Origin: a virus
Lineage: Duplodnaviria; Heunggongvirae; Uroviricota; Caudoviricetes
DNA: 64,000 nt
Virus record (IMG/VR): IMGVR_UViG_3300009784_000001
Location: 246,418-310,417 of that record
Strand: one strand, 5' to 3'
Shown here: piece after piece, positions 4,792 through 63,128 of the stretch
Layout: each line of letters starts with the position of its first letter
Numbering within the stretch: position 1 is the first letter of the stretch
Made by a program: the position numbers and the translations under genes
Notes under the pieces: generated by a model
The model's input: the letters and a program-made list of their open reading frames with translations, nothing else
What the model was told of the DNA's origin: nothing
The model's database searches: none

Positions 4792-5565
4792 ATGGATATT
4801 AAAGATAAAAATGTGGTATTGAATAATAAAAGTAGCGTTCCTTTAGATTACAAAAATTTTGATTATGAATTTTTATTTAAAATAAATGATGATATTATAT
4901 GTCAGAGATTATTTGATATAAGATTTTTTGATAATAGTTCAATTAGAAGTTTTGATCTAAAATATGCTATTGATGAAATAGTAGAACTTATAAATGATGA
5001 TTTAAAAAGTAAAACAAGAATTTATATGTTTAATATGTGTTATTCAAGAGATAATGAAAAACAGGAAAAAGGAAATAAAATTGTTTTAATAAGTGGAGTA
5101 AGAGGTAATGGAGAAGAAGTTATTGTAGATTATAATGATATGTGGGTGTATCTAGAAAAATCTCCTGAATTTATTCCTATTAAAAATGAAAAAAGTGTAT
5201 ATGAAACATATTTAAAAAATGGTTTTTATACTAATAATAAAGGAGAAAAAACAGAAGTTACGGGCTTTTATAATAGACCAAAAATGGTTAATGGAATAAA
5301 AACATATTTACATGATTATGAAAATCAATTTTCTTTTTCATTTAAAATAAAAGGAAAACCAGTTATTACAAAGATATGGTCAGCAGATGATTATCCTACT
5401 TTTGTTCGTTCTAGTGTTGATATAGCTAATAAAAAAGTGTATATAGGAGTAAATGAATCTCAATCAAGCTATGAATTAAGAAAAAAAATGTTTGAGAATA
5501 GAGAAGATTTAATTCCTAAAATTATTTCAATTTTTAGAGATACTTGTTCAAAAGTAAAATTTTAA
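4792..5565 (+). CDS. Hypothetical phage protein
   Basis: 257-aa ORF between exonuclease and helicase. Confidence 0.7.
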   Translation: MDIKDKNVVLNNKSSVPLDYKNFDYEFLFKINDDIICQRLFDIRFFDNSSIRSFDLKYAIDEIVELINDDLKSKTRIYMFNMCYSRDNEKQEKGNKIVLISGVRGNGEEVIVDYNDMWVYLEKSPEFIPIKNEKSVYETYLKNGFYTNNKGEKTEVTGFYNRPKMVNGIKTYLHDYENQFSFSFKIKGKPVITKIWSADDYPTFVRSSVDIANKKVYIGVNESQSSYELRKKMFENREDLIPKIISIFRDTCSKVKF

Positions 5566-5573
5566 TTAAACAA

Positions 5574-7028
5574 ATGAATAAAAGTAAAGGAAGAACGGAT
5601 CTAGCTTATTTAGGAGAAGATTTTCAGTTTAAACTTATTAAAGCATTTATGGATGATAATGATTTATTCAAAGAATTACTTCCATTTATAGATCAAAACT
5701 GTTTTACAATTTCAAATTTAAAAGTTATAGTTGGTTTTTTGAAAGAATTTTTTGAAAAACAAAATTATATCCCATCCTATGAATTATTATCTATTCAATT
5801 ATCTAATTTTATTAAAAATGGCATAGAATTGGAAGAAATAAGAGAAACTATTAAAGAAATTAAGAAAACTTCTGTTGAAGGTGCTGACTTAATTAAAAAA
5901 GATGGCATTAAGTTTTTTAGACAACAACAATTTTTAAGACTATTTAAAGAAGGCATAGAATATTTGGAAAAAGGAATTGATATTGAAGAGACTGATGTTG
6001 AAACTAAACTTCAAAAAACGATGAATATTGGTAAAACAGAAAAAATATGGGGTACTGTTTTTGAAGATTTGGAAAATACATTATCAGAAGAAGAAGATAT
6101 AAGAATTCCATTGGGCGTTCCAGAAATAGATGAATATTTAGAAGGAGGTTTTATAAAAGGTAATTTAGCTGTTGTTGCGGCAGGAACAGGTGTTGGTAAA
6201 ACTACCATTAGCAGTACTTTAGCTGCAAATGCTGCTACTTATAAATGTGAAAAAAATAATTATGAAGGATTTAAAGTTTTACAAATATTTTTTGAAGATA
6301 AGTTTAAAGCCATAAGAAAAAAACATTTTGGAAAGATAACTGGAATAGAAGCACGTAATTTGAGTAAAAAAGAATATGTAGATTTGGTTAAAGAACATCT
6401 TTCAAATTATGAAGATAAGGAATTATTAGAAAAAAATCTTAAGTTAGGAAAATTTAGAACAGGTGAATTAACAGTATCTCAATTAAAAAATTATATTAAA
6501 AATGTAACTCAATCTGGTTTTAAACCAGATGTTATTTTGATTGATTATTTTGAATGTTTACTCAGCCCTAAACTTAATACTAAAAGTAGTGAATGGACAG
6601 GAGAAACTGCTAGGATGCGTGAATTAGAAAATTTAACTGATGATTTTAATGCACTTGTTGTGATTACAACTCAAGGAACAAAAGAAACAGCACAAGGTAT
6701 GTTAATGACACTTGATAAGATTTCTGGTTCAGCAGGAAAAGGGCAAGTGGCCCATATAGTTCTTTCAATAAGTAAAACTAATAAGGATAAGGATGAAGAT
6801 AGAGCAACTATATATATACCCAAATTTAGAGAAGGTAAAAGTGGGAAATCATTTAGTTGTTATTTTAATAATGGGACATGCGAAATAAAAGTTGAAGAAA
6901 TATTTGATAATCTTGATGAACTATTTAAAAATCAAAACAAAGATACAGATAAATTAAATAAAGAAATACAAAATGAAGTTTTAAGAAATACAAGTAAAAA
7001 ACAATTTAACCAGGAAGTACCATTTTGA
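5574..7028 (+). CDS. DnaB/gp41-like replicative helicase (ATG start at 5574 preferred to 5544)
   Basis: AAGTGVGKT Walker A, ILIDYFE Walker B, TTQG, KFREG arginine finger. Confidence 0.9.
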   Translation: MNKSKGRTDLAYLGEDFQFKLIKAFMDDNDLFKELLPFIDQNCFTISNLKVIVGFLKEFFEKQNYIPSYELLSIQLSNFIKNGIELEEIRETIKEIKKTSVEGADLIKKDGIKFFRQQQFLRLFKEGIEYLEKGIDIEETDVETKLQKTMNIGKTEKIWGTVFEDLENTLSEEEDIRIPLGVPEIDEYLEGGFIKGNLAVVAAGTGVGKTTISSTLAANAATYKCEKNNYEGFKVLQIFFEDKFKAIRKKHFGKITGIEARNLSKKEYVDLVKEHLSNYEDKELLEKNLKLGKFRTGELTVSQLKNYIKNVTQSGFKPDVILIDYFECLLSPKLNTKSSEWTGETARMRELENLTDDFNALVVITTQGTKETAQGMLMTLDKISGSAGKGQVAHIVLSISKTNKDKDEDRATIYIPKFREGKSGKSFSCYFNNGTCEIKVEEIFDNLDELFKNQNKDTDKLNKEIQNEVLRNTSKKQFNQEVPF

Positions 7029-7061
7029 TTATAGTATAAAAAGATTTTTTTAAACTCTTGG

Positions 7062-7093
7062 AATGACTTATTTGTGAAAATAGGTCATTTTTT
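7062..7093 (+). terminator. Intrinsic terminator after the replication operon
   Basis: AATGACTTATTT-GTGA-AAATAGGTCATT followed by a T run. Confidence 0.75.
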
Positions 7094-7129
7094 ATTTTAA
7101 ACTATTGATTTTGAAAATATATTTTTTAA

Positions 7130-7137
7130 TATTTATA
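7130..7137 (+). promoter_or_regulatory. Putative late promoter motif TATTTATA before the baseplate operon
   Basis: The same octamer lies 7-25 nt upstream of starts at 41999, 44662, 59313, 60443 and of minus-strand 34249 and 51628; AT-rich background lowers certainty. Confidence 0.5.
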
Positions 7138-7156
7138 ATAACAAAAGTATAATAGA

Positions 7157-7543
7157 ATGGCGACTAAAAAATATTATTCTATAAATTTTCCATTTACGGC
7201 TGATGCTCCTGAAAACTTTTATGTTGATTTAGCTTCTGATCCTTATGTAGGTATAAAACAGGATTTGATGCATTTATTATTTACACCAAAAGGGCAAAGG
7301 TTACGAAATCCTGATTTTGGTACTAATTTAATGAGACAAATTTTTGAACCAAATGATGATGTAACATTTGGTGATATTAAGATAGAAATGCAAACAGTTA
7401 TTTCTAAATATTTCCCTAATGTTAGTATTACTACATTAGATGTTATTCCAGATGCAGAAAATAGGAGTGTAACTATTAATTTAGCTTATGATATAAATCA
7501 AGGCAATTTTACTGTTCAAGATCAAATAAATTATAGTTTATAA
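7157..7543 (+). CDS. Baseplate wedge subunit, gp25/GPW family
   Basis: LLFTPKGQRLRNPDFGTNL..IFEP motif. Confidence 0.9.
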   Translation: MATKKYYSINFPFTADAPENFYVDLASDPYVGIKQDLMHLLFTPKGQRLRNPDFGTNLMRQIFEPNDDVTFGDIKIEMQTVISKYFPNVSITTLDVIPDAENRSVTINLAYDINQGNFTVQDQINYSL

Positions 7544-7545
7544 TT

Positions 7546-8532
7546 ATGGCTAATAAAATAAATGAAAATATAGTTATAAATAGAATATTGAATAAATGTA
7601 AAGATATGGATTATGAATTTAGGGGATTTGCCAATGATGATAATTCATATCAAGGGAATATTACATATTTAATATTGTATTGTAATAAGCATAATCATGA
7701 ATGGAAAAGTACATATGCTAATTTTATTAGGGGAAGAAAATGTAAATTTTGTGGGAATGAAAGTAAAATACAGAATAAAACTATAGATAAAACACTTGCA
7801 AGAAAAAAAATAGAAAAAAAATGTAAAGAGAAAGAATACATTTTTAAATGTTTTAAAAATGAAAAAAATGAATATCAAAAATGGGATGATAGATTATTAA
7901 TTTATTGTGATAAACATCAATATGAATGGGAGGTTAGTTATACAAATTTTGTAAATGGTTCTATTAATTCTCCTTGTTGCAAAGGAGGTATTGCATTAAA
8001 AGAAAAAGATGTTATAAATAAAATAAATGATAAATGTACTAAATTAAATTATACTTTCAAAGGCTTTATTGGAAATAAATATAAAAATAATAAAACTAAA
8101 TTGATTTTGTTTTGTAATAAACATAGTTATGAATGGTATCCTATTTATTCTGATTTTATTTGTAGAAATTCAGGTTGTCCTATTTGTAGAGAATCTAAGA
8201 TAGAAAAAGAAGTTGTTGATATATTAAAAATCAATTTAATTAAATTTGAAAGATGGTATAAAGATTTTGATTGGCTAAAAAATAAAAAAACTAATAGGAA
8301 ACTTGAACTTGATTTTTATCTTCCAGATTATAATATTGCTATTGAATGTCAAGGCGGACAACATTTCAGAGCTATAAAACAATTTGGTGGCATAAAAGGA
8401 TATGAAAAAATAAAATATAGAGATCAAATAAAAAGAGAATTATGTGAAAATCATAATTTAGCTTTATATTATATTAAATATAATGATAATATTAAAAGTG
8501 AAATGAATAAAATATTAAATTTAATAAAATAA
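7546..8532 (+). CDS. Free-standing endonuclease: three C..H zinc-ribbon repeats plus C-terminal PD-(D/E)XK (Vsr/DUF559-like) domain
   Basis: CNKHxxEW repeats; LELDFYLPDYNIAIECQGxQH; inserted between gp25 and gp6. Confidence 0.8.
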   Translation: MANKINENIVINRILNKCKDMDYEFRGFANDDNSYQGNITYLILYCNKHNHEWKSTYANFIRGRKCKFCGNESKIQNKTIDKTLARKKIEKKCKEKEYIFKCFKNEKNEYQKWDDRLLIYCDKHQYEWEVSYTNFVNGSINSPCCKGGIALKEKDVINKINDKCTKLNYTFKGFIGNKYKNNKTKLILFCNKHSYEWYPIYSDFICRNSGCPICRESKIEKEVVDILKINLIKFERWYKDFDWLKNKKTNRKLELDFYLPDYNIAIECQGGQHFRAIKQFGGIKGYEKIKYRDQIKRELCENHNLALYYIKYNDNIKSEMNKILNLIK

Positions 8533-11000
8533 TGACAACAGTACCAACTAAACGCATTTCTGGTTTAGCTAGATCTTTCGAGGAATATCAAAACGAATTA
8601 CTGAATTTTACTAAATTATTTTATCCTGATATATTGAATAATCTTAATGATAGTAGTGTAGGAGCTTGGTTTATTGATTTAAACGCTTCAATTGGGGATA
8701 ACTTATCAAATTATATAGATAGAAGCTATCAAGAAACAAGTATAGACCAAGCACAGTTAAGAAGAAGTTTATTTTCAATTGCTAGAACAAAAGGATTGAA
8801 AATACCTGGCAAAAAAGCATCATTGGTTGAATGTGAAATAGCTTGTGATGTACCTATGGATAGTAATCTTAATCCAAATGTTAATTATTTACCAATTATA
8901 AGAAAAGGATCACAAGCAACAGGAAATGGTAGAGTTTTTGAATTTATTGATGATTCAGATTTTTCAAATCAGTTTAGTAAAAGTGGAGTTAGTAATAGAC
9001 AAATTATTCCAAAAAGAGATAGTAATGGAACGATAACTGGATATACTGTTAAAAAGTTGGAAGTATTATCAGGAAGTCAAACAAAAATATATAATACTGT
9101 AATAGATGATTTTATGGTAGTACCTTTTATGGAAATTGTATTACCTGAACCAAATGTATTATCAATAGATTCTATAATTTTTAAAGAGGGCACTAACTTT
9201 CAATATACTCCATCTAATCAAGATTTTTCTTTACAACAAGAGTTTTTAGATGGCAGTTCTACAAGTGATGGATTGCCTACATGGAAATATTTTGAAGTGG
9301 ATAGTTTATTGGAAGATAAATTATTTTTACCTGATTTAGAACAAATACCTGGTGGATTTGATAACTATCCACATGAAGTATCTAATAATTTTAATGGTGT
9401 TTCTGTTAATTCAAATGTCAGGATTATAAATGGTGGAACTGGTTATACAACAGGAAATGTGTCTATAACACAAATAGGCTCTGATAATAATGCAACAGGA
9501 ACGGTTACTGTTGCCAGTGGTGTTGTAACAGCAGTTACTATTGTTAATGGTGGAACAAACTATACAAATGGTGCAACAGTTATAATTTCACAAGGTTCAA
9601 ATAGAACAGCAGCAGGAATTGCAGTTGTTAATAGTAGTGGCATAATAACAAGTGTTACAGTTCCAAGTGGAAGTATTATTAACAATGCTGATATAAGACC
9701 AGGTGTTGGTTACAGTATTAATATGATTAATTCAAGTGGAAATGTTCCTGTAATTACATATAATGGGAGAACTTATGCAGCAAATTCTAACAATCAGTTT
9801 TTTGGTATTAATGGTGTAACAACAGGTACAGCACCCATAACAAATCCTACAAATGCTTCTGTTCTTGATATAACTAATTATAATGTTTCAATCGTACCAG
9901 GTTCATGGAAAACTATTAGACAAAAATATATTACAGAATACACAGATAAAGGATTTATGAAAATCATATTTGGTGCTGGTTCTGATTATGGCTATTTTTC
10001 AAATGGCATATTAAGCTCTGGACAAGAACAAATAAGAAGAATTATTAATAATGATAATATGGGTGTATTGCCAAATCCTGGTTGGACTATGTTCATTCAA
10101 TACAGGATAGGTGGAGGTGTGCAATCTAATGTAGCTTCTAATGTTATTAATCAATTAAGTTTTAGAAATATTGATATACCAGGTATTGGAGATGGAAGTG
10201 GTGATGATGCTTATTGGAAAAATTATGTAGATAGATCAATTACTATAACCAATACTTCTCCTTCCGTTTCAGGAAGAGATGAACCATCTAATGATGAAGT
10301 TAGATATATGATAAAATATAATAATCTTGCTCAAAATAGGTGCGTTACAATTCAGGATTATAAGGATAGAATTGAAAAAATGCCACCTTTATATGGTACA
10401 CCATTCCGTTTGGGAATTATAGAAAGAAATAATATTATATATATTTCAATATTAGGTATAGATCAAGGTGGTCATTTAACTGATAATGTAAGTACTACGT
10501 TAATTGATAATATGAGTAATTATTTGAGTGAATATAAAATAATGACTGATTATGTTATAATTAAGCCTGGTAAAATTGTAAATTTACAGATTGAAGCTGA
10601 TATAATTGTTAATAAGGCTTTTAATAATAATGATGTTGTTAAAAATATTATTGAAACAATTCAAGATTTTTTTGATATTAATCAACGAAAAATGGGAGAA
10701 AACATATACATTTCTCAATTAAATCAATCAATATTGTCAGTATCAGGTATTAACAATTTAATTGAAATAAGGGTTTATAATATATTTGATAATGAATATT
10801 CAAAAAATAGAATAAGTCAAGCTATTATTGCAGGGCAATTTACAAATGGTGGAATATGGCAGCCAAGTCAAACTGCTGGAACAAATAGAGTTCAAGTTGA
10901 TTTATTAAATAGTGAAGGTATTCTTTTTGCTGATATAGATACAATGTTTGAAGTAAGAAATATAAATGTTGATATAAAAATAAGAGTTAAAAATAATTGA
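8532..11000 (+). CDS. Baseplate wedge protein, T4 gp6-like, with an inserted G-x-GYT repeat module
   Basis: N-terminal RSFEEY..YPD..DNLSNYID..ET..A..RRSL..IA and AQNRCVTIQDY motifs. Confidence 0.85.
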   Translation: MTTVPTKRISGLARSFEEYQNELLNFTKLFYPDILNNLNDSSVGAWFIDLNASIGDNLSNYIDRSYQETSIDQAQLRRSLFSIARTKGLKIPGKKASLVECEIACDVPMDSNLNPNVNYLPIIRKGSQATGNGRVFEFIDDSDFSNQFSKSGVSNRQIIPKRDSNGTITGYTVKKLEVLSGSQTKIYNTVIDDFMVVPFMEIVLPEPNVLSIDSIIFKEGTNFQYTPSNQDFSLQQEFLDGSSTSDGLPTWKYFEVDSLLEDKLFLPDLEQIPGGFDNYPHEVSNNFNGVSVNSNVRIINGGTGYTTGNVSITQIGSDNNATGTVTVASGVVTAVTIVNGGTNYTNGATVIISQGSNRTAAGIAVVNSSGIITSVTVPSGSIINNADIRPGVGYSINMINSSGNVPVITYNGRTYAANSNNQFFGINGVTTGTAPITNPTNASVLDITNYNVSIVPGSWKTIRQKYITEYTDKGFMKIIFGAGSDYGYFSNGILSSGQEQIRRIINNDNMGVLPNPGWTMFIQYRIGGGVQSNVASNVINQLSFRNIDIPGIGDGSGDDAYWKNYVDRSITITNTSPSVSGRDEPSNDEVRYMIKYNNLAQNRCVTIQDYKDRIEKMPPLYGTPFRLGIIERNNIIYISILGIDQGGHLTDNVSTTLIDNMSNYLSEYKIMTDYVIIKPGKIVNLQIEADIIVNKAFNNNDVVKNIIETIQDFFDINQRKMGENIYISQLNQSILSVSGINNLIEIRVYNIFDNEYSKNRISQAIIAGQFTNGGIWQPSQTAGTNRVQVDLLNSEGILFADIDTMFEVRNINVDIKIRVKNN

Positions 11001-53742: not shown

Positions 53743-53864
53743 TCCCCTGTAGCTCAGTTGGTTAGAGTACTTAAAATGAAGTTTTCTGGGTAGGAAATGT
53801 TCAGCAATATCAATCAAAATCGCTGTTAACGAAGGGGTCGGCAGTTCGAGTCTGTCCAGGGGTT
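53743..53864 (+). ncRNA. tRNA-Asn(GTT)-like RNA with a 48-nt insert (53773-53820) in the anticodon stem
   Basis: Removing the insert restores CTTCG-CTGTTAA-CGAAG; D and T arms canonical; T1:T72 mismatch, T73. Confidence 0.85.
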
Positions 53865-53911
53865 CAAAGATTTCTTATTTAGATTAAAATAAGTGGCAGA
53901 GAAGAGGATTA

Positions 53912-53968
53912 AGAAAACATACAGCATTTTTTATCAATTCAACCATAGGAAAGAAAAAGTGTTTTCTG
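53912..53968 (+). ncRNA. Stand-alone stem-TACAGCA RNA module, copy 1
   Basis: AGAAAACA-TACAGCA...TGTTTTCT-G. Confidence 0.75.
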
Positions 53969-54194
53969 AAATAAAAAGATAGGGTTCACTGAGTTAAAGT
54001 GAATAGTTCAATACCAAGGTGAGGGAAGTGTTGAATGATAATATAAGTCCTTACATGTAATATAACTACATATCTAACATGTTTTATATATAGTCATGAA
54101 TGTTATAAAACCTCTGGAACATTTTTTTTTATTAGGGTAGTTTTCATTGGATTAGACCCTGACTTTATGGTAAGTTATATTTACCTTAATTTAT

Positions 54195-54270
54195 TGGAAC
54201 TTAGCTCAGCTTGATTTAGAGCATCTGTTTTACAAGCAGAGGGCCGTGGGTTTAAATCCCCCAGTTCCAA
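54195..54270 (+). tRNA. tRNA-Val(TAC)
   Basis: Cloverleaf, TCTGT-TTTACAA-GCAGA. Confidence 0.88.
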
Positions 54271-54279
54271 CAATTAAAT

Positions 54280-54351
54280 CGGGGGATAGAGCAGTGGTAG
54301 CTCACCAGGCTCATAACCTGGAGGTCGAAGGTTCGATCCCTTCTCCCCCAA
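54280..54351 (+). tRNA. tRNA-Met(CAT), initiator type
   Basis: C1:A72 mismatch, CCAGG-CTCATAA-CCTGG. Confidence 0.92.
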
Positions 54352-54355
54352 CAAT

Positions 54356-54484
54356 AGGAAAGGTACAGCAAATTGAATTAAAATTCTATTTACAATTTTA
54401 CTATGAGGAAGAGAGCTTTCATCTAAAATAGGTGGAAAACAACTCTCAAAGAAATGAGTACTTCTCTAAAAACTCTCTTTCCTG
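54356..54484 (+). ncRNA. Stand-alone stem-TACAGCA RNA module, copy 2, with a large structured interior
   Basis: AGGAAAGG-TACAGCA...TCTTTCCT-G. Confidence 0.7.
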
Positions 54485-54491
54485 ATATCAT

Positions 54492-54621
54492 AAAATAAAT
54501 CTTTACATCAAGGTGTACATAAATCTGTATAGTGGTACAAATGAGGGGCAAAGGAGAAGAATTTGCGTAGTCCGCTTGGAGTATCGGGTAGCTATGGTTG
54601 GGAAAGGTAAAGATTTATTTT
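54492..54621 (+). ncRNA. Structured ~130-nt RNA closed by a perfect 15-bp stem
   Basis: AAAATAAATCTTTAC / GTAAAGATTTATTTT with internal hairpins. Confidence 0.6.
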
Positions 54622-54636
54622 TAATTTTTATATAAT

Positions 54637-55071
54637 ATGTTATATTCAATATTATTAACATTAGGATTATTAATTTTAGCTCATTTTATTGGAGATTGGA
54701 GTAAATTTGTTCCATTTCATCAAAAAGTAGTTAATGCAAAAGTTAATAAAACCAATACATCTGGAAATTGGATATTTTTACATTCAAGTATTGTATCTCT
54801 GTATAAAATATTTGCAATTTTAATTTCATCTTGGATTATTCCAATAGGAAATATGCCAGGTTTTTTGAATACAATATGGTTTTATATTATTCTTGTAGTA
54901 ATATTTTTTGGAGAACTAATAACACATTTTGTATTTGATATTTCTAAATGGTTTCTAAATAATAAATATAATCTGAATCCATCAAAAGATATTTATTGGA
55001 CTGTTGTTGGTATTGACCAAATGCTACATTATTTAGTAATGTTAGGAATGTTATATTTATTATATTGTTAA
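54637..55071 (+). CDS. DUF3307-like membrane protein
   Basis: AHFIGDW, LHS, THFVFD, GIDQMLHY. Confidence 0.75.
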   Translation: MLYSILLTLGLLILAHFIGDWSKFVPFHQKVVNAKVNKTNTSGNWIFLHSSIVSLYKIFAILISSWIIPIGNMPGFLNTIWFYIILVVIFFGELITHFVFDISKWFLNNKYNLNPSKDIYWTVVGIDQMLHYLVMLGMLYLLYC

Positions 55072-55079
55072 TTTTATAT

Positions 55080-55165
55080 GGCTATGTGGCGTAATTGGGA
55101 GCCGCAGGGGACTTAAAATCCCCTCTCCTGTAAAGGAGGTACAGGTTCAAGTCCTGTCATAGCTA
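55080..55165 (+). tRNA. tRNA-Leu(TAA)
   Basis: GGGGA-CTTAAAA-TCCCC, long variable arm. Confidence 0.92.
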
Positions 55166-55168
55166 CGA

Positions 55169-55289
55169 TGAGAATTAGCTCAGTTGGTAGAGCAAAGGTA
55201 TTATAAAAAGTTTCTTGAATAAGAAATGTTCAGCAATATTTAAAAATGGGAACTTTATGTCAGCAGTTCGAGCCTGCTATTCTCATCCA
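55169..55289 (+). ncRNA. tRNA-like RNA (Pro TGG-like) with ~45 extra nt in the anticodon loop
   Basis: Acceptor TGAGAAT/ATTCTCA-T-CCA, canonical D/T arms, stem AAGGT/ACTTT enclosing 52 nt ending TGGGA. Confidence 0.8.
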
Positions 55290-55292
55290 CAT

Positions 55293-55366
55293 TTTCTGGT
55301 AGTTCAATTGAATAGAACCTTCGGCTTCTACCCGAAAAGTTGGGAGTTTGAATCTCCCCCAGAAAG
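55293..55366 (+). tRNA. tRNA-Arg(TCT)
   Basis: TTCGG-CTTCTAC-CCGAA. Confidence 0.9.
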
Positions 55367-55383
55367 CAAAATAAATAGAAAAA

Positions 55384-57607: not shown

Positions 57608-57739
57608 ATGAGAGAATTTAGTAAACATATTAATAATTTTGTTGAGGTTAGTTATAAACCCAATAGTAATTGTAATTCAAATGAAAAACCATTTGAAGAT
57701 GATAATAATTTGCTAAAAGGATTTTGTGTATATATGTAA
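57608..57739 (+). CDS. Attenuator leader peptide 1: MREFSKHINNFVEVSYKPNSNCNSNEKPFEDDNNLLKGFCVYM (43 aa)
   Basis: Translated by hand; A-rich start context; 3' end complementary to the terminator 5' arm. Confidence 0.75.
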   Translation: MREFSKHINNFVEVSYKPNSNCNSNEKPFEDDNNLLKGFCVYM

Positions 57740-57760
57740 CATTTACTCAAATATACGTTC

Positions 57761-57810
57761 CACAAACCCTGATAGCAAAATTAAAAAAGTTATCAGGGTT
57801 TTGTGTTTTT
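57761..57810 (+). terminator. Attenuator terminator 7 nt before tRNA-Glu
   Basis: CACAAACCCTGATAGC / GTTATCAGGGTTTTGTG plus TTTTT. Confidence 0.85.
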
Positions 57811-57968: not shown

Positions 57969-57976
57969 CAAAAATA

Positions 57977-58048
57977 GAGAGTATAGCATAATCTGGTAAG
58001 TGTGCCTTCCAAGTGGGAAGGAGATGTGGTTCAAATCCAATACTTTCT
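57977..58048 (+). ncRNA. Atypical tRNA-like RNA with a non-canonical anticodon loop
   Basis: GAGAGTA/TACTTTC acceptor, D arm, CCTTCC-AAGTG-GGAAGG, GGTTCAAATCC; no U33. Confidence 0.65.
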
Positions 58049-58056
58049 GCAAAAAT

Positions 58057-58290: not shown

Positions 58291-58427
58291 CTATAATTAA
58301 AAAAGTTAAAGGGACTTTGAAAAGAATTATAAGTGAAAATAATATGAGTAATAAATTAAAAATAAAACGAAAATGTAGCTGACCTCACAGTTAATATGGG
58401 CTGTGAGGTTGGGAATAAGGATATTAC

Positions 58428-59312: not shown

Positions 59313-59648
59313 ATGAAAAAAAGAATTATTATTTTATTATCATTATTTTTCATAATGAACATAAGTCAAGCAGCTATTTATAAAACAAAAAGTGAAAGTG
59401 ATGTAATTGAGAATAGTACAGGTTTATTTGGAGAAAAAAAAGTAGAGAAAATTGAAAATACAGAAGATAATTATGGTGGATTATTCAGAGCATCAGATCC
59501 AGGTGGAAGACCAGGGAATGGTGATGGAATTGGTCAGCAAGCACCATTAGGTGATGGATTAAAAATATTACTTATACTTTGTTTTTTCTTTCTTCTTTAT
59601 GAATTTTCTACAAACAAAAAAATTAACATAAAAAATTTGGATAATTAA
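59313..59648 (+). CDS. Secreted small protein with a PID-CTERM-like C-terminal anchor
   Basis: Signal peptide ending SQA; G/P-rich linker; APLGDG plus TM plus basic tail. Confidence 0.6.
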   Translation: MKKRIIILLSLFFIMNISQAAIYKTKSESDVIENSTGLFGEKKVEKIENTEDNYGGLFRASDPGGRPGNGDGIGQQAPLGDGLKILLILCFFFLLYEFSTNKKINIKNLDN

Positions 59649-59667
59649 AAAATAAATTGTAATTTTG
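59636..59667 (+). promoter_or_regulatory. Bacteroidota-type promoter for the Met / CAGCA / leader-2 transcript
   Basis: TTTG-N20-TAATTTTG. Confidence 0.7.
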
Positions 59668-59704
59668 TAGAGTAATAAGATATTTATAAGATATAAAAAT
59701 AGAT

Positions 59705-59782
59705 CGTGGTGTGGAGGAGTCTGGCTTTCCTCATCTGGCTCATAACCAGAATGTCACATGGGTTCAAATCCCATCACCGCAA
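59705..59782 (+). tRNA. tRNA-Met(CAT), initiator type
   Basis: C1:A72 mismatch, TCTGG-CTCATAA-CCAGA. Confidence 0.9.
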
Positions 59783-59787
59783 CAAAT

Positions 59788-59841
59788 AGAAAACATACAG
59801 CATTTTTTCAATTTTCAATGGGAGAAAAAAAGTGTTTTCTG
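59788..59841 (+). ncRNA. Stand-alone stem-TACAGCA RNA module, copy 3
   Basis: AGAAAACA-TACAGCA...TGTTTTCT-G, near copy of 53912. Confidence 0.75.
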
Positions 59842-59850
59842 AAAAAAATA

Positions 59851-59932
59851 AGGAAAGATACAGCAATGTTAAATGGTTAAAAGAAAATTCTGTAAAAATT
59901 TTTTGAAAAGGTTCAAATCCTATTCTTTCCTG
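59851..59932 (+). ncRNA. Stem-TACAGCA RNA module, copy 4, enclosing a tRNA-Tyr-like anticodon arm and T arm
   Basis: AGGAAAGA-TACAGCA..AATGGTTA..AAAATT-CTGTAAA-AATTTT..AGG-TTCAAAT-CCT..TCTTTCCT-G. Confidence 0.75.
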
Positions 59933-59968
59933 TAAATTTGAAAAGTTAAATTAAAAAAAATAGAAAAA

Positions 59969-60079
59969 ATGAAACAAATTAGTAGTACATATTGTCTTGG
60001 AAGTTCATCAGCGATTAGTTTTGCTGGTACAACATCCTTTTGTACTTATCATTTTTATGATAATTTTGTTTCAAGTTAA
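59969..60079 (+). CDS. Attenuator leader peptide 2: MKQISSTYCLGSSSAISFAGTTSFCTYHFYDNFVSS (36 aa)
   Basis: Translated by hand; 25 of 36 codons are S/T/Y/C/F/A/L; 3' end complementary to the terminator 5' arm. Confidence 0.82.
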   Translation: MKQISSTYCLGSSSAISFAGTTSFCTYHFYDNFVSS

Positions 60080-60108
60080 AAAAAGAATTACCTTAACCTG
60101 GCAAGGAT

Positions 60109-60153
60109 AAACCTGAAACAAATCTATAAAAAAGAAAAGTTTCAGGTTTTTTT
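60109..60153 (+). terminator. Attenuator terminator 9 nt before tRNA-Ser(GCT)
   Basis: AAACCTGAAAC / GTTTCAGGTTT plus T run. Confidence 0.85.
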
Positions 60154-60162
60154 AATTTATAT

Positions 60163-60247
60163 GGAAAGTAAACCTATAAGGTGTAGGAACCGCCTGCTAA
60201 GCGAGTTGTACAATTAAATGTATGTGAATCGTGTTCACTGCTCTCCG
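60163..60247 (+). tRNA. tRNA-Ser(GCT)
   Basis: CGC-CTGCTAA-GCG, long variable arm, G73; atypical T loop. Confidence 0.78.
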
Positions 60248-60288
60248 CAAAAGTTCTTTGAAATTGTTGGTTAATTATAAATTATTAT

Positions 60289-60371
60289 GGATTAGTTGGG
60301 TAGTGGCAATCCCAAGACACTGTAACTGTCTCGCCTTCGGGCTTTCGCTGGTTCGAGTCCAGCCTAATCCA
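60289..60371 (+). tRNA. tRNA-Tyr(GTA)
   Basis: AGACA-CTGTAAC-TGTCT, variable arm GCC-TTCG-GGC. Confidence 0.92.
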
Positions 60372-60442
60372 CATAAAAATATTTTTCTTAATAACTATAC
60401 TTTTTTAGTTCGATGCGATATTTATATATAAATGTAAATATT

Positions 60443-61384
60443 ATGATAAAGGAACGAGAAGAATTAATTATTAAAATAATAAAAGAGAGTAATAGTATTT
60501 CAGAGGTTTGTAAAAAGTTAAATATATCTGTTACTAATGGTAATTATATAACAATAAAAAAAATAATAAAAAACAATAATTTAGATATATCTCATTTTAA
60601 AAGAGTTTCACAAAATTCTAATAAAAAGCGATATACGTTACAAGAAATTATGGTTGAAAATTCATCATACACCAATGTAAATAAATTAAAGAAAAGATTA
60701 ATTAAAGAAGGGATTAAGGAAAATAAATGTGAAATATGTGGAATAAGTAAATGGAATGGAGAACAAATTTCTTTACAATTGCATCATAAAAATGGTATCA
60801 CAAGTGATAATAGAATAGAAAATTTACAAGTACTTTGTCCCAATTGTCATTCTCAAACACATAACTATGGTGGGAAAAATATAGATAATAAAATAAGAGA
60901 AGATAGATTTTGCAGAATATGTGAGAAAAAGTTAAACGATACACAAAAAAAGTATTGTTCAATCAATTGCTATAATAAAAGTATTGATGATAATATTCCA
61001 ACTAAAAACAAAATCTTATCTTATATAAAAAATTATACAACACTTGTAGAATTATGTAAAAAAGAAAAAATTGATAGAGGGACATTTAGAAATTGGTGTA
61101 ATAAAAGACAATGTATAGATGATGTAAATTTTTTGTTGAAAAAAAATTTTGAAATAAAAATTTTAAATATTGAAGTTAAGAATGATTTATATGAAAAAAG
61201 ATGTGAATTAATAAATAAATTTAAAAAATTTGGGTCATTCTTACAAGTAGGTAAATATTATGGAGTATCCGATAATATGATAAGAAAAAGATGTAAAAAA
61301 ATTGGTTTACCTGTTCATACAAAAGAAATGATAAAATTAATAAATTCGGAAGAATGTCAGAGTGCTTTATTGTACAACTCTTGA
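60443..61384 (+). CDS. Free-standing HNH homing endonuclease within the tRNA array
   Basis: CEICG..LQLHHKNG..DNRIENLQVLCPNCHSQT; the stop codon is the anticodon of the next tRNA. Confidence 0.88.
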   Translation: MIKEREELIIKIIKESNSISEVCKKLNISVTNGNYITIKKIIKNNNLDISHFKRVSQNSNKKRYTLQEIMVENSSYTNVNKLKKRLIKEGIKENKCEICGISKWNGEQISLQLHHKNGITSDNRIENLQVLCPNCHSQTHNYGGKNIDNKIREDRFCRICEKKLNDTQKKYCSINCYNKSIDDNIPTKNKILSYIKNYTTLVELCKKEKIDRGTFRNWCNKRQCIDDVNFLLKKNFEIKILNIEVKNDLYEKRCELINKFKKFGSFLQVGKYYGVSDNMIRKRCKKIGLPVHTKEMIKLINSEECQSALLYNS

Positions 61385-61432
61385 AAAGTTGTGAACTTTC
61401 GAGTTCCGTAGGTTGGAATCCTACTTCTTCCG
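61348..61432 (+). tRNA. tRNA-Ser(TGA)
   Basis: CAACT-CTTGAAA-AGTTG, long variable arm, G73. Confidence 0.9.
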
Positions 61433-61443
61433 CAAGATAATAA

Positions 61444-61516
61444 GGGATAGTAACATAGAAGTTTATGTGCTGGTCTGAAAAACCAGAAATGCTTGAGGCG
61501 GTATCAGCCTATCCCA
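61444..61516 (+). tRNA. tRNA-Phe(GAA)
   Basis: CTGGT-CTGAAAA-ACCAG; atypical T loop GGCGGTA. Confidence 0.8.
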
Positions 61517-61526
61517 CAAATTAAAT

Positions 61527-61612
61527 GCTTCAATGGGGGAATTGCTAGACCCGCTTGATTTAGGCTCAAGTTTCTGGGAACAGAAGTGTAGGTTGGATTC
61601 CTACTTGAAGTA
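61527..61612 (+). tRNA. tRNA-Leu(TAG)
   Basis: CTTGA-TTTAGGC-TCAAG, long variable arm. Confidence 0.9.
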
Positions 61613-61618
61613 CAATAT

Positions 61619-61690
61619 GTTCAGTTGCCAGAGTGATAATGGGGTAGACTGCAAATCTATTTTTCGTTGGTTTGAATCCAACACTGAATT
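61619..61690 (+). tRNA. tRNA-Cys(GCA)
   Basis: GTAGA-CTGCAAA-TCTAT, T73. Confidence 0.9.
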
Positions 61691-61702
61691 CAAAAAATAA
61701 AT

Positions 61703-61773
61703 GCTGTGTTAGTATAAGAGTATTACATTGGCTTTGTAACCCAAAAATGGGGATGCGATTTCCTCACACAGCT
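61703..61773 (+). tRNA. tRNA-Thr(TGT)
   Basis: TTGGC-TTTGTAA-CCCAA, acceptor GCTGTGT/ACACAGC. Confidence 0.85.
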
Positions 61774-61782
61774 CTAAATTAA

Positions 61783-61854
61783 GGGCTTATCATATAATAG
61801 CTATTATGCCACCCCTGCAAGGTGGTTATTGGAGTGCAATTCTCCATAGGTCCA
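61783..61854 (+). tRNA. tRNA-Ala(TGC) with C33
   Basis: G3:T70 wobble, A73, CCACC-CCTGCAA-GGTGG. Confidence 0.85.
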
Positions 61855-61883
61855 CTTATTTAGCATTTATTAACTTGAATAAT

Positions 61884-61914
61884 TTTGATATTAGATAATA
61901 TTTTCTTATCTTTG
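61884..61914 (+). promoter_or_regulatory. Bacteroidota-type promoter
   Basis: TTTG-N19-TATCTTTG. Confidence 0.8.
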
Positions 61915-61933: not shown

Positions 61934-62548
61934 ATGAAAAAGATAGAATTAGTTTATAATAATTTAGATATTAATAATTTACCAGGTGAAATATGGGTAG
62001 ATGCTTATGATTTTGATGGTTATTATGAAGTATCCAATATGGGGAGGATAAAAACTTGTGAAAGAGAAGTCAGTAATGGAGTTGGGACAAGAATAGTAAT
62101 TAGTAAAATTAGGAAACAGGTTTTAGGTAAAGATGATAGATTAACTTGTCCCTTTACTATAAATAATGAAAGTATATCTATAAATGTTTCAAGGTTAATC
62201 TTTCAATCTTTTAACCCCACTAAGATTTTAGATAATTTAGTGGTTTCACATAGAAATAGATGTAAATGTGATAATAGATTGAATAATTTAAAAGTGGAAA
62301 CATTACAAAACAATCATTTTGATAATGTTCATAAGTATAATTATGGCTTAAAAGAACATTTGTTAAAACTGAATAAAATTAAACATGAAAAATTTGTCAA
62401 TACAATAAAAAGCAAAGTTTGTAATAAATGTGGAATAGAAAAAGATATAATAGAATTTGTATATAAAAGAGAAGGAAAAAGAGATGAAAATAGAAATATA
62501 TGTAAAATGTGTAGAAATAAACGTGAAAGAAATAGAATTAAAAAATGA
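61934..62548 (+). CDS. NUMOD4-HNH homing endonuclease
   Basis: GEIW....FDGYYEVSNMGRIK (NUMOD4); VSHRN..KCDNRLNNL. Confidence 0.88.
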   Translation: MKKIELVYNNLDINNLPGEIWVDAYDFDGYYEVSNMGRIKTCEREVSNGVGTRIVISKIRKQVLGKDDRLTCPFTINNESISINVSRLIFQSFNPTKILDNLVVSHRNRCKCDNRLNNLKVETLQNNHFDNVHKYNYGLKEHLLKLNKIKHEKFVNTIKSKVCNKCGIEKDIIEFVYKREGKRDENRNICKMCRNKRERNRIKK

Positions 62549-62975: not shown

Positions 62976-63048
62976 GTTCAGTTCTTCTAATGGTTTAGGA
63001 AGCAAGACTGATATTCTTGTAATATAAGTTCGATTCTTATACTGAACA
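62976..63048 (+). tRNA. tRNA-Ile(GAT)
   Basis: CAAGA-CTGATAT-TCTTG. Confidence 0.88.
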
Positions 63049-63050
63049 CT

Positions 63051-63128
63051 GTGTGGGTAGCTAATATTGGTTAAGGCACTAGATTGTGGCTCTAGGTTTT
63101 TATGGGGGTTCGATTCCCCTCTCACACC
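63051..63128 (+). tRNA. tRNA-His(GTG)
   Basis: CTAGA-TTGTGGC-TCTAG, C73; genomic -1 base is T. Confidence 0.9.

Follow-up and report, generated by a model that had tools for sequence, protein, structure and literature searches.

The virus record IMGVR_UViG_3300009784_000001 is complete and comprises 359,943 nt with 26% G+C and the standard code. The window analysed here is a stretch of 64,000 nt of this jumbo phage (positions 246,418 to 310,417 of the record), and the features of the locus lie on its + strand. The subject is a candidate leader-peptide attenuator, unit B. It consists of a 36-codon open reading frame (ORF; leader B, 59969–60079), an intrinsic terminator with an 11-bp stem and a U tract (60109–60153), and eight tRNA genes (block B). 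The terminator stem (60109–60119 with 60139–60149) is followed by seven U to 60153 and has a folding energy of -14.7 kcal/mol (z -4.8). It ends 9 nt before tRNA-Ser(GCT), which starts at 60163. The initial annotation had proposed both the ORF and this spacing; they were borne out, and a recount gave the same codon and amino acid counts throughout.

Block B comprises tRNA-Ser(GCT) (60163–60248), tRNA-Tyr(GTA) (60289–60372), tRNA-Ser(TGA) (61348–61433), tRNA-Phe(GAA) (61444–61518), tRNA-Leu(TAG) (61527–61613), tRNA-Cys(GCA) (61619–61691), tRNA-Thr(TGT) (61703–61774) and tRNA-Ala(TGC) (61783–61855). ARAGORN found tRNA-Ser(GCT) at a lowered threshold only, and BLAST gave matches to annotated phage tRNA-Ser. 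The tRNA-Phe was called by neither ARAGORN nor Rfam and was recognised by eye from its acceptor stem and anticodon arm. All eight tRNAs of the array described initially are present, but the array is not contiguous. An HNH-type endonuclease ORF (60443–61384; 60419–61384 including its own TATTTATA motif at 60419) separates tRNA-Tyr from tRNA-Ser(TGA), whose 5' half it overlaps. Its match to Pfam HNH_3 (E=2.8e-5) is slightly short of the family cut-off. The genes of tRNA-Ile(GAT) and tRNA-His(GTG) (62976–63128) are possibly the far end of unit B: no terminator separates them from block B, but a strong host-type promoter ending at 61914 also precedes them.

The start context of leader B ranked at the 93rd percentile of real starts and in the top 0.3% of all ATGs. 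The leader contains nine Ser, four Thr, four Phe, three Tyr, two Cys, two Ala and one Leu codons; Lys, Asn and Asp occur once each and Glu not at all. Thus, 25 of the 35 codons after Met encode amino acids of block B, compared with 35% in the phage proteome, and this test, suggested by the initial annotation, gave P=1.45e-5. An equal cognate content was reached by 0.03% of proteome windows of the same length and, among 881 short ORFs, by 14. Because the seven cognate amino acids use T-rich codons, a base-shuffle null was also run, and 12 of 4000 open shuffles equalled the leader. The other two frames have 10 of 36 cognate codons (open, no start) and 20 of 36 (with four stops). In the sensing zone (codons 2–29), 21 of 28 codons were cognate, or 24 of 28 when Ile and His were counted (the leader also holds two ATT and one CAT). 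Each tRNA of block B is represented by at least one codon in this zone.

For the switch model, nascent RNA was folded with a cut before the terminator 3' arm, and the RNA was masked by the ribosome as far as 12 nt beyond the A-site codon. The antiterminator 5' strand (60052–60077) has as its core a 9-bp helix (60065–60073 with 60114–60122). Additional pairing comes from 3 bp (60075–60077 with 60110–60112) and from an outer helix that starts at 60052 and involves the terminator loop. With the ribosome on codons 2–29, the pairing of the terminator 5' arm to the ORF was 0.77; it fell to 0.09 at codon 30 and was 0 after that. The antiterminator value of leader B was matched by only 4 of 300 codon-order shuffles. 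The two exclusive structures expected on folding with and without the last codons masked were seen in this model, with the flip at codon 30. In the folding models, antiterminator and terminator are mutually exclusive, and stalling on codons 2–29 would lead to read-through.

A further element, region 1 (59970–59978), is absent from the account given by the initial annotation. Here the first codons duplicate sequence of the terminator 5' arm (10-nt identity, reached by 1 of 3000 shuffles), and the element formed in the nascent-RNA folds of both leader B and its orthologue on a related phage contig (L015, JGI 3300042596). In folds lacking a ribosome, region 1 paired with the antiterminator strand and sequestered it, a counterpart of the 1:2 pairing in the trp leader (PMC1183508). 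Region 1 forms first in these folds, yet region 3 can displace it. The pairing of region 1 would also account for the Lys and Gln codons of leader B, which are non-cognate. Between region 1 and the antiterminator strand, a hairpin followed by four U (59999–60042, -12.9 kcal/mol), also missing from the initial account, is a candidate RNA polymerase pause site. L015 retains its inner stem, in which a G.U pair has become A-U through a synonymous change.

The arrangement is found twice more in the same genome. Unit A (57608–57810) has a 43-codon leader and a terminator before tRNA-Glu, Asn, Asp, Pro, Pro and Lys. Unit C (positions 312751–312916 of the genome, just outside the window) has a 30-codon ORF and a terminator before tRNA-Gln, Gly and Trp. 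The number of codons cognate to the own block was 20 of 42 in leader A, 25 of 35 in leader B and 12 of 29 in leader C, and leader B is depleted for the amino acids of blocks A and C (3 of 35 each). Comparing the three leaders with the three blocks gave a diagonal match, and none of 100,000 random assignments of amino acids to blocks scored as well. The genome has about 65 terminator-like hairpins, of which just three follow a 25–60-codon ORF with a start score >1; all three pairs directly precede tRNA blocks, namely those of units A, B and C. Units A and C flipped like unit B in the folding model, with C less significant (40 of 300 shuffles). This internal replication is stronger evidence than the composition of leader B alone. 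The genes of tRNA-Val, Met(CAT), Leu(TAA), Arg(TCT) and Arg(ACG) (54195–55367; genome 329514–329587) have no leader–terminator unit ahead, which means that only part of the tRNA set is gated. Block A also contains an odd tRNA-like gene with a non-standard anticodon loop (57976–58050, Thr(AGT) in ARAGORN), which is absent from the L015 block. Directly 5' of its tRNA-Lys lies a strong conserved hairpin (58375–58420; 10700–10745 in L015).

L015 carries both leaders A and B. Its leader B has lost two codons in frame, and 23 of 33 codons are cognate (P=6e-5). Replacements exceed silent changes 7 to 3. Three of the replacements are cognate to cognate, two are non-cognate to non-cognate, one is a gain and one is Phe to Ile; five of the seven stay within the codon class. 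In both orthologues, Leu is encoded by CTN and Ile by ATT, at two and three independent sites, respectively. No differences were seen in the antiterminator core (60065–60073), in either arm of the terminator or in region 1; the terminator loop is changed, and the outer helix is kept via one-sided changes. The spacer from the stop to the terminator is rewritten and 10 nt longer. The folding models gave the same switch. This pattern fits selection on the reading frame, the codon class and the RNA helices rather than on the peptide. A third copy of leader A lies on a 526-nt contig (L147). Searches for further leader B orthologues, with proteins against viral contigs and with DNA patterns against viral, metagenome and genome contigs, found none besides that of L015; homologues of the neighbouring 82-aa gene were found in other contexts.

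Matched leaders were also found in an unrelated cultured phage, phiCbK. Its annotated gp083 is followed by a terminator and a tRNA block for seven amino acids, and these make up 41 of the 44 residues of gp083 (P=1.2e-12). The next tRNA block is likewise preceded by a leader, an ORF missing from the annotation, with 20 of 31 residues cognate. The diverged leader of CcrColossus keeps 35 of 38. The phiCbK genome paper annotates terminators and does not mention attenuation or leaders. No matched leader was found before tRNAs in the regions examined of crAss-like Bcn9, immuto, Lak-C1, EFDG1, CBB and Maestro; hence, the system is not universal. CcrRogue, which was reported to have no tRNA-Ser (PMC3556154), was ruled out as a natural case of tRNA-Ser loss. 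It encodes tRNA-His, Ala and three tRNA-Ser (L288 3419–3845) that its annotation and genome paper overlooked. A 20-codon ORF, identical in three Caulobacter phages (5177–5262 in phiCbK, L279; L288 1558–1620; L291 1557–1619), runs into a terminator before tRNA-Glu and tRNA-Asp and is a possible third, differently wired leader.

The intergenic promoters of the phage genome are of the Bacteroidota type (TTTG then TAnnTTTG), in agreement with the published consensus (PMC9723704). The closest cultured match of the recombinase is Flavobacterium phage immuto (35% identity). As the phage encodes a sigma70-type factor, transcription by the host core polymerase, which obeys intrinsic terminators, is plausible. 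Scored with a matrix derived from 53 intergenic sites of the genome (median 34.3), a host-type promoter (Bacteroidota sigma-A, TTTG ... TAnnTTTG) at 59636–59667 reached 33.8; it is conserved in L015. The transcript with leader B most likely starts there and crosses a tRNA-Met gene and two small structured RNAs first. The initiator-like tRNA-Met(CAT) (59705–59783), so classed from its unpaired first base, lies 5' of the terminator and is hence ungated. The two RNAs with an ACAGCA motif (59787–59843 and 59851–59935) are predicted to be co-transcribed ahead of leader B and are conserved in L015. No host-type promoter was found from 59667 to 61870. The TAnnTTTG-like matches inside leader B (60016 and 60061) were rejected as promoters with scores of -22 and -8, compared with about 34 for real ones. 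A sigma-70 promoter/terminator scan was unsuited to the promoters of this host and missed the leader B terminator owing to its long loop. The motif TATTTATA is a putative phage late promoter and also occurs at 59681–59688. Fifty intergenic copies lie ≤80 nt from a same-strand start, compared with 27 for the reverse complement. This orientation bias resembles the behaviour of an oriented phage promoter.

Unit B is very probably a multivalent, ribosome-mediated transcription attenuator, through which the phage regulates its own tRNA genes in a feedback loop on tRNA supply. Host-core RNA polymerase would transcribe leader B, probably pausing at the 59999 hairpin, and a ribosome would load. When charged Ser, Tyr, Phe, Leu, Cys, Thr and Ala tRNAs (perhaps also Ile and His) are plentiful, the ribosome would reach codon 30 or later and cover 60065–60073, the terminator would fold and transcription would stop 9 nt before tRNA-Ser. 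When any cognate charged tRNA is scarce, the ribosome would linger upstream, the antiterminator would fold and the tRNA block would be transcribed. The new tRNAs would relieve the stall and close a negative feedback loop. This polarity, from stalling to read-through, had been proposed initially; like the geometry, the codon matching, the two internal replicates with their different amino-acid sets, the orthologue and phiCbK, it agrees with ribosome-mediated attenuation of tRNA genes. We infer that the signal sensed is tRNA cleavage, shortage or starvation. The pressure would most likely be a shortage of tRNA through cleavage or degradation of host tRNAs or through late-infection demand; starvation would also trip the switch. 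Since the output is tRNA and extra tRNA is no cure for amino-acid starvation, it is more logical that selection came from tRNA loss or overload.

Several observations weigh against this reading. The enrichment of leader B is weaker under a dinucleotide-aware null: its cognate content was equalled by 114 of 4000 first-order Markov resamples (2.9%). T-richness explains part, not all, of the composition signal, which alone is real but moderate. The match to isoacceptors, for which the initial annotation pointed to the split of the Ser codons (AGT five times, TCA three times, TCC once) and the Leu codon CTT, is thin. The counts are right, but with two independent CTN Leu sites (~P=0.05) the matching is suggestive only, and the TCC, ACT, GCT and CTT codons would need extended wobble. 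When the full-length RNA of unit A was folded to equilibrium, the terminator won; the switch therefore depends on co-transcriptional kinetics. The gp083 ORF of phiCbK showed no pairing with its terminator arm in the folding model. The conservation of leader B rests on two sequences, and the L015 contig ends after tRNA-Ser. Finally, the putative TATTTATA at 60419 lies 3' of the terminator and ahead of six of the eight tRNAs. The initial annotation had named a promoter downstream of the hairpin as evidence against control by the leader; none of the host type scored between the terminator and tRNA-Ala, and this motif before the six distal tRNAs is the candidate that remains. Late in infection it could bypass the switch for these six and make control leaky. 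The genes of tRNA-Ser(GCT) and tRNA-Tyr lie 5' of it, out of reach of that bypass.

The leader could instead act as a general translation-stress sensor, an upstream ORF (uORF) like those of topAI, hflXr or erm, where any slow ribosome opens the switch and codon content is incidental. Antibiotic-sensing uORF attenuators are well documented, and a 28-codon zone with nine amino-acid types would react to any general slowdown. However, an unspecific sensor needs no codon matching, and in all three leaders the codons of the own block are enriched and those of the other blocks depleted, as in phiCbK; the explanation is therefore quite improbable. An equally small probability falls to an unregulated or degraded unit, with the terminator as a fixed leak, the ORF as a relic or a small functional peptide, and the block expressed mostly from the late promoter of the HNH gene. 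The motif at 60419, the aberrant arms of several tRNAs and the excess of replacements in the orthologue all fit such decay. Yet both phages retain an intact reading frame, region 1 and switch helices despite the drift of the spacer, and the replacements keep the codon class, as expected under selection on codons instead of the peptide. Moreover, tRNA-Ser(GCT) and tRNA-Tyr precede the HNH motif, and the leader B peptide matched no Pfam family. Least probable of all is trans-acting control of read-through (by a tRNA sensor of the T-box kind, an antitermination protein of the phage, or the ACAGCA RNAs together with a protein): protein antitermination is common among phages and structured RNAs precede the leader in both phages, but an Rfam scan of the window found tRNAs only and no T-box, units A and C share the design without adjacent ACAGCA RNAs, and a trans factor leaves the codon matching unexplained.

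The gated tRNAs at 61348–61855 have unusual loops: TTG replaces TTC in several T loops, tRNA-Ala has a C at position 33 and tRNA-Phe has an aberrant T arm. These non-canonical loops might protect the tRNAs from nucleases or be a mark of decay. Genes or remnants of the HNH and NUMOD4 types lie at 60443–61384 and 61934–62548 of the window, at 312995–313110 of the genome, and at 6920–7730, 9939–10496 and 11220–11648 of L015. Their positions in the tRNA blocks differ between the phages; in L015 one endonuclease gene splits tRNA-Leu and another occupies the place that tRNA-Met has here. The RNAs with the ACAGCA / TTCAGCAA motif form a family; they are small, structured or tRNA-like, and conserved in two related phages. 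Members lie at 53779–53975, 54357–54485, 55169–55285 and 59787–59935 of the window, at 8080–8390 of L014, and at 6620–6720, 7770–7890 and 11630–11870 of L015. No match to TROVE (PF05731) was found in this phage genome. A 111-aa ORF at 59313–59648 has a signal-peptide-like start, a hydrophobic C-terminal segment, its own host-type promoter and no Pfam match.

In its working, unit B resembles the enterobacterial attenuators of amino-acid operons (thr, ilvGMEDA, ilvBN; trp, his, leu, pheA; PMC1183508). Shared features are a short ORF rich in regulatory codons, 1:2 pairing, a 2:3 antiterminator, a 3:4 terminator with a U tract, a candidate pause hairpin and the predicted step from stalling to read-through. 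The sequence and the folding models point to a usable start, cognate codons, a terminator and an exclusive antiterminator, the features of leader-peptide attenuation. The differences are that the unit is phage-borne, that its output is tRNA genes and not enzymes, that seven to nine amino acids would be sensed at once compared with two or three, and that three parallel units divide the tRNA set, with feedback on tRNA supply itself. The downstream genes are tRNAs and the HNH ORF, and none makes or charges a sensed amino acid; with tRNA as its output, the unit falls outside the trpL/hisL/thrL/ilvL group of amino-acid operons. In Escherichia coli, pheM-pheST controls a part of the translation machinery by leader-peptide attenuation and senses charged tRNA; it differs in being chromosomal, with one amino acid and a synthetase as its output. 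T-box riboswitches also report tRNA status by a choice between terminator and antiterminator, but they bind uncharged tRNA directly via a specifier loop and have no translated ORF. Neither a stem I specifier loop nor an antiterminator bulge of T-boxes was matched in the Rfam scan of the window.

It is established that phage defence involves cleavage of host tRNAs and that phage tRNAs can provide rescue (PMC11555353; PARIS, PMC11464382; anticodon-loop variants, PMC10264068). For example, the tRNA-Tyr of T5 counters retron Eco7, and the rescue was ascribed to a strong promoter (PMC11555353). The tRNAs described here may likewise replace cleaved or depleted host tRNAs, and odd anticodon loops occur here too. 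In contrast, their expression looks conditional, and PMC11555353 and PMC10264068 are silent on attenuation or leaders. Leader-peptide attenuation has been reported for amino-acid operons in Flavobacterium (PMC9723704). Our literature search, with most subscription journals outside its reach, found no description of it for tRNA genes or in phages. Leader-peptide attenuation is known for amino-acid genes; tRNA genes as its output are very probably new.

For more than 50 years it has been an open question why phages have tRNA genes (PMC10264068). A tRNA block triggered only by slow reading of its own codons would argue for on-demand replacement tRNAs over constant codon-usage supplements. We lean slightly towards a broader reading, in which large phages of unrelated hosts, such as this Bacteroidota phage and the phiCbK-like phages of Caulobacter, carry modular codon-matched leaders for each tRNA block, measure which host tRNAs are failing, also as a result of anticodon-nuclease defence, and supply only those, as an inducible counter-defence. 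If this is true, the leaders would be a readable record of the tRNAs that a phage expects to lose. The role of phage tRNA genes becomes testable: a reporter can reveal the trigger, and phiCbK, which is in culture, infects a model host. Attenuation would also extend from metabolic operons to tRNA supply, and the leaders would be a compact natural sensor for tRNA-cleaving defence.

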